Shown in pieces: positions 1,798 to 2,088 of a stretch of DNA of 6,371 nt. Each line of letters opens with the position of its first letter. The stretch's first letter is position 1. The DNA comes from a virus (lineage: Duplodnaviria > Heunggongvirae > Uroviricota > Caudoviricetes), in the IMG/VR virus record IMGVR_UViG_2582580933_000012, positions 1-6,371 of that record. One strand, written 5' to 3'. A program made the position numbers and the translations under genes. A model generated the notes under the pieces. It was not told the DNA's origin, ran no database searches, and worked only from the letters and a program-made list of their open reading frames with translations.

Positions 1798-1862
1798 AGC
1801 CTCACCTCCGCAAATAACGGATGGCGTAGTTTTACACTGAGAAATGAAAGGGATTTGAAAAG

Positions 1863-1882
1863 AAAAAACCGCAAAAGCGGGC
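1863..1882 (-). terminator. Weak intrinsic terminator-like hairpin (CCGC-tttt-GCGG followed by a T-run on the minus strand) in the holin leader
   Basis: Plus strand reads aaaaaaCCGCaaaaGCGGg; on the minus strand a 4-bp GC stem with tetraloop is followed by TTTTTTCTTTTC. Stem is short, so termination efficiency is uncertain. Confidence 0.25.
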
Positions 1883-1957
1883 GAAACGATATATACAGAA
1901 AGGAAAGCACTCTATCCAACAAACCACCCACAGTTAATCGGAATAAAAGCAGAGTGC

Positions 1958-2029
1958 TTATGAATGATCGCCTGCCCGAAGGTTAGTATTTCTGCACAGC
2001 AATTTTGCAAAAAAAGCGATCATTCATAA
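1958..2029. repeat. Perfect 14-bp inverted repeat (TTATGAATGATCGC / GCGATCATTCATAA) with 44-nt spacer, in the leader between tRNA array and holin
   Basis: Arms at 1958-1971 and 2016-2029 are exact reverse complements; each arm contains a GATC site. Confidence 0.6.
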
Positions 2030-2036
2030 CTTAAAC

Positions 2037-2082
2037 GTCTTTCAGTCACTCCGGGATTTCCCATCATCGCAGACTGAAAGAC
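2037..2082. repeat. Perfect 11-bp inverted repeat (GTCTTTCAGTC / GACTGAAAGAC) with 24-nt loop, immediately downstream of the tRNA-Gly 3' end
   Basis: Arms at 2037-2047 and 2072-2082 are exact reverse complements. Confidence 0.6.
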
Positions 2083-2088
2083 TCTAAC

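Follow-up and report, generated by a model that had tools for sequence, protein, structure and literature searches.

Three hairpins, called hp1, hp2, and hp3 here, lie in the 291 nucleotides (nt) between a transfer RNA (tRNA) array and the holin gene of a lambdoid Escherichia coli prophage, and the way their sequences have changed among relatives indicates that they are independent, evolutionarily conserved RNA structures of the transcribed (minus) strand. The stretch of DNA analysed, which we call the window at its full length of 6,371 nt, comprises positions 1 to 6,371 of the IMG/VR virus record IMGVR_UViG_2582580933_000012 and represents the late region of the prophage, read on the minus strand. 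Between the tRNAs and the holin (1798-2088), the comparative evidence identifies 2088-1863 on the minus strand as the 3' trailer of a self-contained prophage tRNA operon, and 1862-1798 as the holin 5' untranslated region (UTR). A preliminary description, made from the letters of the window, had labelled the whole region a holin leader, and this label could not be kept, since the hairpins go with prophage tRNA arrays and with the leader between the antiterminator gene Q and the lysis genes (the Q-to-lysis leader), and only about 65 nt are the holin 5' UTR. We tentatively propose that the tRNA transcript releases the trailer as a stable non-coding RNA and that t2, the terminator at the end of the trailer, shields the lysis genes.

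The region holds three perfect inverted repeats. An 11-base-pair (bp) repeat at 2037-2047 and 2072-2082 (spacer 24 nt; first arm 6 nt past the tRNA-Gly 3' end at 2089) and a 14-bp repeat at 1958-1971 and 2016-2029 (spacer 44 nt) with GATC in each arm are both present as first described, as is a GC hairpin with a T-run on the minus strand at 1880-1863 (CCGC-UUUU-GCGG-UUUUUU), 66-83 nt before the holin ATG at 1797. Another perfect repeat, of 9 bp (1905-1913 and 1951-1959), had been missed. The suspicion that such repeats are not accidental is well founded: those of at least 9 bp number three in the 291 nt, compared with 0.07 expected, those of at least 11 bp number two, compared with 0.003 expected, and none of 2000 dinucleotide shuffles matched either count. 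When the minus-strand RNA was folded, as the preliminary description had suggested, it reached -92.5 kcal/mol (z = -4.6), with none of 200 shuffles folding as well; the plus strand of the same region gave z = -2.7. Together with the retention of the helices in relatives, this bears out a structured non-coding RNA on the minus strand.

It had also been claimed that the region holds no plausible open reading frame (ORF), and we agree; ORFs of 31-45 amino acids (aa) are present, and none is kept in relatives. A search for a conserved small-protein frame found, on the sense strand, a GTG start only in type A (one of two types of relatives, A and B, compared below) and frame lengths from 8 to 115 codons among relatives, and on the antisense strand a frame that is interrupted in type A and shifted by insertions and deletions in type B. 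Two phage records nevertheless annotate hypothetical proteins in this region.

For comparison, 193 related loci were assembled from pattern scans of a viral contig collection and from other searches. In these relatives, the long stems are under selection, with all three helices kept through compensatory and G·U changes. For hp1, 97.6% of cells were paired over 41 distinct sequences and four pairs had changed on both sides; for hp2, 89.2% over 47 distinct sequences with seven such pairs; and for hp3, 93.9% over 52 distinct sequences, with three lower-stem pairs occurring as three pair types each and all upper-stem changes being A-U/G·U or C-G/U·G swaps. Slid controls reached 40-49%, 35-55%, and 37-47%, respectively, and for each hairpin none of 500 shuffles attained the observed paired percentage or covariation score. 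RNAalifold, applied to 28 full-length variants, predicted these three hairpins as well; its structure has 58 pairs, and 10 of them carried compensatory changes. Loop sequences stay constant while the stems change.

The pairing is also strand-specific. On the transcribed strand the paired percentages exceed those of the complement (97.6 vs 81.5 for hp1, 89.2 vs 83.6 for hp2, and 93.9 vs 86.3 for hp3), and over the three modules there are 339 G·U cells vs 88 A·C cells. Because of this better pairing and the excess of G·U over A·C, the signal would belong to a single-stranded nucleic acid of the minus strand, and its position in a tRNA operon points to RNA as the simple reading.

Each hairpin has an architecture of its own (Table 1). 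In hp1, the 11-bp stem leads through an asymmetric internal loop to a short GGG/CCC stem. The core begins with the pairs G2070·U2048 and C2069-G2049, followed by a bulge of G2068, A2067, and U2066, the tandem G2065·A2050 and A2064·G2051, and a 4-bp stem (2063-2060 with 2055-2052). By consensus, a kink-turn has two helices, first a canonical and then a non-canonical one, and between them a 3-nt bulge followed by tandem sheared G·A and A·G pairs. The kink-turn sequence pattern is found in hp1 in full: C20-G40, then G21, A22, and N23, then G24·A39, A25·G38, and U/A26·G37, and lastly GGG/CCC. Positions C20, A22, G24, A25, G38, and A39 are invariant across the 41 distinct sequences, and variation is found at the third base of the bulge and in the pair that follows the tandem, with further lineages having GAA or GAG bulges. 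We therefore describe hp1 as kink-turn-like, its sequence pattern being that of a consensus kink-turn with the elements on the bulged strand in the order required. All four elements are shared by hp1 with Kt-7 and the box C/D kink-turn, the canonical helix of hp1 ending in C-G; hp1 differs from them in that its assignment comes from sequence alone. We know of no L7Ae-type or other kink-turn binding protein in E. coli.

The hp1 module stands directly behind a tRNA in 133 of 159 copies (tRNA-Gly in 129, tRNA-Met in three, and the variable tRNA described below in one). In type A, the extended stem begins 2 nt past the CCA end of the tRNA, and in type B, about 5 nt would remain unpaired at the predicted new 5' end after tRNA-Gly. 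The inner part of hp1 (2048-2071) resembles the variable loop and T arm of tRNA-Gly (2105-2128), one locus (L009, 1904-1970) is a recombinant in which the 5' half of tRNA-Gly is joined to the 3' half of hp1, and phage HK639 has a degraded tRNA-Gly (27.5 bits, below threshold) upstream of the element. In five loci (L190 at 5190-5290, L034, L198, L199, and L200) the hairpin after hp1 is a long one of another kind (GCAUGAGCAC...GUGCUCAGCCGAAUGC). The L190 hairpin contains GGGUGGUUUG and CUAACC in the reverse of their order in hp3, and because of this opposite order, the hp3 helix may recur there in flipped orientation.

The second hairpin, hp2, is a three-way junction. Pairing of 2029-2016 with 1971-1958 gives its outer stem of 14 bp, and pairing of 2013-2006 with 1996-1989 its inner stem of 8 bp; RNAalifold predicts both of these but not the third element, a small CC-UUCG-GG hairpin at 1982-1975. 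The invariant sequence of hp2 is UUUUUGCAAAAUUGCUGUG. A TTGCAA with a poor -10 on either strand was considered as an internal promoter in hp2 and set aside, as the promoter scan made no call and the match was unconvincing by eye. GATC occurs in both 14-bp arms in the window, as first noted, but it is not conserved, the type B arms reading GGGCGC and GCGCTC.

Above its lower stem, hp3 has a G·U-rich upper stem (1942-1933 with 1924-1915) closed by an apical loop (1932-1925). The motif GGGUGGUUUGUUGG has its first 5 nt in the apical loop, and its remaining nt make up the 3' strand of the upper stem. In loci fetched through hp1 alone, hardly any variant has a change in this motif, despite an overall difference of about 24% between types A and B. 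The rare variants have single-base changes (GAGTGG, GGTTGG, and GGTATG) or a small insertion. The linkers between the three hairpins are 4-5 nt, about as tight as the 1-3 nt between the tRNAs.

Table 1. Features of the window in the order of late (minus-strand) transcription, with plus-strand ORFs placed at their position.
Feature	Position	Strand	Basis or description
DUF968 protein	4916-5965	minus	minus-strand late order
RusA	4532-4903	minus	minus-strand late order
Q antiterminator	4192-4551	minus	PF06530 type; minus-strand late order
Three ORFs (303, 81, and 128 aa)	2631-4178	plus	between Q and the tRNAs; convergent with the late transcript
t1, strong intrinsic terminator	2523-2543	minus	terminator scan; 8-bp stem, then U7; upstream of tRNA operon
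Predicted sigma-70 promoter of tRNA operon	2408-2436	minus	promoter scan, 9/12 matches
tRNA array Met-Lys-Thr-Gly	2089-2398	minus	ARAGORN and Rfam tRNA matches; linkers 1-3 nt
tRNA-Met(CAU)	2398-2323	minus	ARAGORN
tRNA-Lys(UUU), variable position	2321-2245	minus	ARAGORN; Rfam only 44 bits
tRNA-Thr(UGU)	2242-2167	minus	ARAGORN
tRNA-Gly(UCC)	2163-2089	minus	ARAGORN
hp1	2037-2082	minus	perfect inverted repeat; 11-bp stem (2082-2072 with 2047-2037) around kink-turn-like core
hp2	1958-2029	minus	perfect inverted repeat; three-way junction
hp3	1905-1959	minus	lower stem 1959-1951 with 1913-1905, 9 bp
Near-invariant hp3 motif GGGUGGUUUGUUGG	1916-1929	minus	apical loop and 3' strand of upper stem
t2, putative weakened intrinsic terminator of tRNA operon	1863-1880	minus	CCGC-UUUU-GCGG, then U6; -5.9 kcal/mol
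Holin 5' UTR proper	1798-1862	minus	Shine-Dalgarno GGAGGUGAG at 1809-1801
P21-type holin	1797-1582	minus	PF04971, P21 S type; MKSM dual start
Sequence in holin gene complementary to Shine-Dalgarno region	1747-1756	minus	10-nt perfect complement of 1812-1803; 41-50 nt inside gene
DUF1327 protein	after holin	minus	
Lysozyme	after DUF1327 protein	minus	N-terminal hydrophobic stretch
Rz	after lysozyme	minus	embedded ORF in Rz1 position

The element is widespread in E. coli. Of 5426 complete E. coli genomes, 540 have a match to the 291-nt region at any identity, and in 517 the identity is at least 95%; all 594 places are chromosomal, with a median of one and a maximum of five per genome. Carriers include ST131, enteroaggregative strain 042, and avian pathogenic strains. 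A dispersed repeat of the repetitive extragenic palindromic (REP) or miniature inverted-repeat transposable element (MITE) kind was rejected, given the median of one place per genome and the fact that every locus examined is a prophage late region. Four E. coli phages carry the element, among them the Shiga toxin 2f phage phi467, and the copy in phage HK639 has 76.6% identity. In a collection with one genome per species, true matches came only from E. coli and Shigella flexneri, the other five being probably due to chance. Salmonella phage Fels-1 has hp2 only, and a search of the phage collection with a solitary hp3 copy gave no match.

The three hairpins behave as separable modules. All three are present in 134 of the 193 loci, and the rest have hp2 and hp3, hp1 and hp2, hp1 alone, or hp3 alone. 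Module hp2 can directly adjoin tRNA-Gly or tRNA-Thr, hp1 and hp3 are also found solitary behind terminators or ORFs, and single modules occur in other phage backbones. Wherever neighbours were inspected, the setting of the modules is the late leader, with a Q-type gene on one side and a lysis cassette on the other, or, in one case, the stretch just after Rz. Since the Q, holin, and endolysin families vary among these loci, the modules belong to tRNA arrays and late leaders generally and not to this holin.

Copies of the small RNA (sRNA) family STnc100 adjoin the modules in many late leaders and do not overlap them; examples are L001 (HK639) at 2706-2911 and L187 (Fels-1) at 1273-1486, 1687-1809, and 2810-3028, and further copies are found in L007, L070, and L081. 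Because of this adjacency, the Q-to-lysis leader appears to be a collecting site for structured RNAs.

Upstream of the trailer, the tRNA operon appears complete in itself. Its order and its linkers of 1-5 nt recur in relatives, and its predicted promoter comprises TTGCAA, a 17-nt spacer, TATTAT, and a GC-rich discriminator (CCTGCGCC), with an end 9 nt before tRNA-Met. Both promoter hexamers are retained in 24 distinct variants, including two with diverged flanks (L102 and L071), and we infer that the promoter is active. The terminator t1 is within a 145-nt block kept upstream of tRNA-Met in most relatives, and in phage vB_EcoS-689R5 the block with t1 and the promoter begins about 65 nt past a different Q gene (230 aa). 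Because two unrelated Q types share this block, the predicted promoter is unlikely to be a Q-specific late promoter, and we dropped it as a candidate for that role. We read the promoter, tRNAs, trailer, and terminator as a putative self-contained moron.

Within the array, the second tRNA (2245-2321 in the window, with equivalents in loci L012-L202) has a constant scaffold and an anticodon loop that varies in both sequence and length, while the Met, Thr, and Gly tRNAs around it are almost invariant between related prophages. Across prophages, ARAGORN calls this tRNA as Lys, Arg(UCU), Phe(AAA or GAA), Leu(UAA or CAG), or Ser(UGA), and in further loci as an ochre suppressor (UUA), and there are several loops that it cannot assign. 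Between t1 and the promoter lies a Chi sequence (2478-2485, reading GCTGGTGG on the minus strand), which is kept in all 24 of 24 variants of the block, the two divergent ones included. Just upstream of the promoter -35, a direct repeat, AAAAATCACC, occurs in two copies (2443-2467, plus strand), one of which is taken out by a 15-nt deletion in many relatives; this A/T tract may be UP-element-like.

The terminator t2 follows about 25 nt past hp3. Four alleles of it were found in type A, with stems of 6 bp and U4 (GCGGGC, 24 loci, -12.6 kcal/mol), 5 bp and U5 (GCGGG, 20 loci, -9.1 kcal/mol), 4 bp and U6 (GCGG, the allele of the window, 27 loci, -5.9 kcal/mol), and 3 bp and U7 (GCG, 8 loci, -2.6 kcal/mol). 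In this series, which spans 1863-1883 in the window, the stem shortens base by base as the U-tract lengthens. In type B, the stem is 6 bp long and the tract is U6, and a second terminator often follows; the HK639 counterpart of t2 is annotated as a terminator. The alleles indicate that t2 occupies a real terminator position and is probably leaky in the form present in the window, where the stem is shorter than the 5 bp or so of G+C-rich pairing that usually precedes the U-tract of an intrinsic terminator.

The preliminary description had offered a late terminator of the tR' kind as one possible role of the stems. The first half of that proposal holds in altered form, as the hairpin with the T-run appears to be a weakened local allele of a real intrinsic terminator (relatives have 6 bp, -10 to -12.6 kcal/mol). 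The tR' half does not hold. In lambdoid phages, tR' is the first terminator past the Q-dependent late promoter, near the Q gene. The hairpin at 1880-1863 comes only after four tRNAs and a tRNA promoter of their own, and t1 (2543-2523) holds the tR'-like position and is more likely the tR'-like element.

Past t2, the holin 5' UTR proper is conserved only among relatives with the same P21-type holin. Translation-start control through pairing of the Shine-Dalgarno sequence within the gene has been described for the phage 21 holin. By analogy, pairing of the holin Shine-Dalgarno sequence with 1756-1747 probably controls translation starts here.

We compared the region with known RNA families and systems. 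The Rfam scan that had been proposed, run on the whole window, on the region at E up to 10, and on the HK639 and solitary hp3 copies, gave only tRNAs and noise, both at E up to 1 and at E up to 10. The best of the noise was a box C/D small nucleolar RNA (snoRNA; E = 1.9), a near-match due to the kink-turn motif of hp1, and istR (26 bits vs a threshold of 45). STnc100, AgvB, AsxR, and Esr41 had no Rfam match at E up to 10. For PasA and PasC, blastn with word size 7 against both E2348/69 loci found nothing, and for GcvB, which had seemed to share 9-10-mers with the region, local alignment to MG1655 gcvB was no better than to shuffles (P = 0.14-0.37). GGGUGG and the kink-turn are reminiscent of a T-box, but the Rfam T-box model had no match at E up to 10. 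As for rrn-type antitermination, the sole match to boxA (UGCUCUUUAACAA) has three mismatches, and 2.0 such matches are expected by chance. The literature searched makes no mention of the hp3 motif or of this tRNA trailer.

By sequence, then, the trailer belongs to none of these families: 3'ETS-leuZ (ETS for external transcribed spacer), prophage sRNAs, or GOLLD and ROOL. Closest in kind, by analogy of position, are 3'ETS-leuZ and the prophage sRNAs of the same Q-to-lysis site. The 3'ETS-leuZ of the E. coli glyW-cysT-leuZ tRNA operon is reportedly an sRNA sponge, a finding ascribed to Lalaouna and colleagues in 2015. In location, the trailer is of this type, being directly 3' of the last tRNA of its operon and ending at the operon terminator, with the same layout in relatives; as with 3'ETS-leuZ, release would be expected by tRNA 3' processing. 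The two differ in that there is no sequence relation and that the prophage trailer is about four times longer, has three conserved hairpins, and precedes lysis genes.

The sRNAs described for the Q-to-lysis leader of prophages are PasA, PasC, and PasD (bioRxiv 10.64898/2026.05.13.724894) and AgvB and AsxR (PMC4104026), and those of this moron site also include PasD/STnc100 and StxS (bioRxiv 10.64898/2026.05.13.724894; PMC8550237; PMC4104026). Pas, STnc100, AgvB, AsxR, and StxS share with the trailer the lambdoid prophage niche between the antiterminator Q and the holin. In contrast to this common location, Pas, STnc100, AgvB, and AsxR have no homology to the trailer element, and PasA is opposite in strand to the holin, whereas the trailer has the orientation of the holin and is joined to a tRNA array.

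Other phage RNAs are more distant. The tRNA cluster of phage T4 encodes the stable RNAs known as species 1 and 2 and RNA C and D. Like the trailer, these are structured, lie inside a phage tRNA operon, would be processed with the tRNAs, and have no assigned function; T4 is a virulent T-even phage, in contrast to a temperate lambdoid one, and the likeness is one of analogy. GOLLD and ROOL are Rfam families of 500-800 nt found mainly in Firmicutes and other non-enteric bacteria. They resemble the trailer as prophage-associated structured RNAs often beside tRNA genes, but the trailer element is about 200 nt, modular, and without an Rfam match to either. The put RNA of HK022 and HK639 consists of two stem-loops just past the early promoter that act on the transcribing polymerase. 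It differs in location, the trailer being in the late leader after tRNAs, and read-through of t2 in a lysogen would be harmful.

Taking these comparisons together with the layout of the operon, we propose the following for a stable trailer RNA. In the lysogen, transcription of the tRNAs and the trailer would start at the promoter of the operon itself, a site similar to stable-RNA promoters, and during lytic growth the Q-modified late transcript would cross the same stretch. The tRNAs would be freed by ribonuclease (RNase) P and RNase E, the latter acting at the U-rich linker past the CCA end, and the remainder would be a structured RNA of about 200 nt ending at t2 and persisting as a non-coding RNA of the 3' external transcribed spacer type. 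The kink-turn core of hp1, the UUUUUGCAAAAUUGCUGUG of hp2, and the GGGUGGUUUGUUGG of hp3 could serve as recognition surfaces for a host RNA or protein, specific recognition being suggested by the invariance of these loop and strand sequences. The terminator t2, leaky as it seems to be in the window, would also limit transcription of the operon into the lysis genes.

Several observations weigh against this proposal, and our support for it falls short of confidence. Most of the motif GGGUGGUUUGUUGG is in base pairs, an uncommon state for the seed of an sRNA, and a search of the window for a target of the G/U-rich strand of hp3 found a best duplex of -22.7 kcal/mol vs a mean of -23.2 for shuffled sequences. 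In the window, t2 has a 4-bp stem and is not called by the terminator scan, which needs at least five pairs. More broadly, 35 of 99 distinct hp3 contexts failed the terminator test within 130 nt; about half of the failures are type A alleles with stems too weak, the window's included, and the rest are solitary hp3 copies without a terminator. Because such copies have none, a terminated sRNA is not the whole story. The independent compensatory events are modest in number, roughly 10-15, as most sequences fall in two main lineages with a few others. The patterns used to collect the loci lie inside hp1 or hp3, so that the invariance of exactly these stretches is in part by construction. The sources searched contain no expression, end-mapping, or binding data for the trailer RNA.

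An unlikely though serious alternative is that the hairpins are cis-acting processing or stability elements of the late transcript, that is, RNase III sites, a role already raised in the preliminary description, or end protectors, with no function in trans. Such elements would detach the lysis mRNA from the excised tRNAs and guard the 5' end newly formed past tRNA-Gly. The placement of hp1 or hp2 within 1-7 nt of a tRNA 3' end in most copies speaks for this, as do the start of the extended type A hp1 stem 2 nt after the CCA end and the solitary copies in intergenic parts of late operons without a terminator. The coaxial helices of 17-24 bp with internal loops also resemble the RNase III sites of T7 and lambda, which are likewise intergenic, loop-interrupted hairpins of about two helical turns in long phage transcripts. 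An RNase III substrate is about 20 bp of coaxial double-stranded RNA, and hp1 has 17 bp, hp3 18 bp, and hp2 16 + 8 bp, all interrupted by loops. However, the T7 and lambda hairpins lack invariant loop sequences, and RNase III cleavage or end protection requires helices, not invariant loops or a kink-turn core. Moreover, type B keeps its 5 or so unpaired nt at the predicted new 5' end, and several related phages are without one or more of the modules.

It seems quite improbable that the modules are protein-binding or decoy RNAs working with the tRNA cassette, which might inhibit or titrate a host nuclease that attacks tRNAs, an enzyme of tRNA processing, or some other RNA-binding factor. The tight association with tRNA arrays would fit such a role, and so would the kink-turn features of hp1 with its likeness to tRNA-Gly, the presence of a candidate defence gene nearby in the same region, and the neighbouring tRNA, whose hypervariable anticodon loop on a constant scaffold is what might be expected of an arms race. 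This support is circumstantial, though; we know of no L7Ae-type kink-turn binder in E. coli, and no partner gene co-occurs with the modules, as Q, lysis, and moron genes all vary between loci. A wider version of the same idea, which we regard as a long shot, is that hp1 to hp3 constitute a new accessory-RNA family of phage tRNA arrays, excised like tRNAs and forming with the hypervariable tRNA a cassette for counter-defence or translation reprogramming; its members might, for example, be decoys or inhibitors of host nucleases or enzymes that target tRNAs.

We also doubt a debris model, in which duplicated tRNA genes and old terminators left remodelled remnants that hitch-hike with the tRNA moron without any function. 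An origin of this kind would be consistent with the alignment of inner hp1 sequence to the variable loop and T arm of tRNA-Gly, with the tRNA-Gly/hp1 recombinant in L009, and with the degraded tRNA-Gly of HK639, and modules have been lost in many loci while the t2 stem is eroding in type A. Debris, however, would not account for compensatory and wobble substitutions that hold three helices across lineages about 24% apart, for invariant loops, or for single modules retained in unrelated late leaders with different flanks.

Very unlikely is a role, put forward in the preliminary description, in Q-dependent control of lysis, either through a tR'-like terminator or attenuator or through a small RNA acting on holin translation. 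It is true that a terminator-like hairpin stands 66-83 nt before the holin start, that relatives often have one or two good terminators there, and that in established lambdoid biology the Q-modified polymerase must read through terminators to reach the lysis genes. But the three hairpins are found beside unrelated holins and, in other loci, away from any holin, the better tR' candidate is t1, which precedes the tRNA promoter, no complementarity was found between the hp3 motif and the holin start region, and the holin Shine-Dalgarno sequence already pairs inside the holin gene. Barely credible, lastly, is an action of the repeats as DNA (operators, Dam-methylation-sensitive sites, recombination sites, or single-stranded DNA hairpins), for while the perfect arms, the GATC in both 14-bp arms of the window, and the mosaic junctions of related phages at module borders might suggest it, GATC is missing from the type B arms, the copy number is one per prophage, unlike REP or MITE, and the helices are kept through G·U on one strand only, which double-stranded operators would not tolerate. 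A single-stranded DNA hairpin formed by that strand is a remote possibility.

The other genes of the window are listed in Table 1. The first of the three plus-strand ORFs between Q and the tRNA block (303 aa) matches the PADLOC candidate defence family PDC-S42 (E = 3e-53), and Pfam gave no match for any of the three. Phage phi467 has two plus-strand ORFs at the equivalent position.

The element is present in roughly a tenth of complete E. coli genomes, and its site is the one at which lambdoid prophages hold toxins and regulatory RNAs. Even if the hairpins prove to be mere processing signals, the calling of hypothetical proteins in this region should cease. Features with experimental appeal are a consensus kink-turn in an enterobacterial phage RNA, a graded series of terminators before lysis genes, and a neighbouring tRNA with a hypervariable anticodon loop. 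If the trailer is a stable RNA, it would be a second natural example of a tRNA-trailer RNA, and an RNA family supported by covariation, absent from Rfam and from the literature searched, would join the regulators encoded by prophages.

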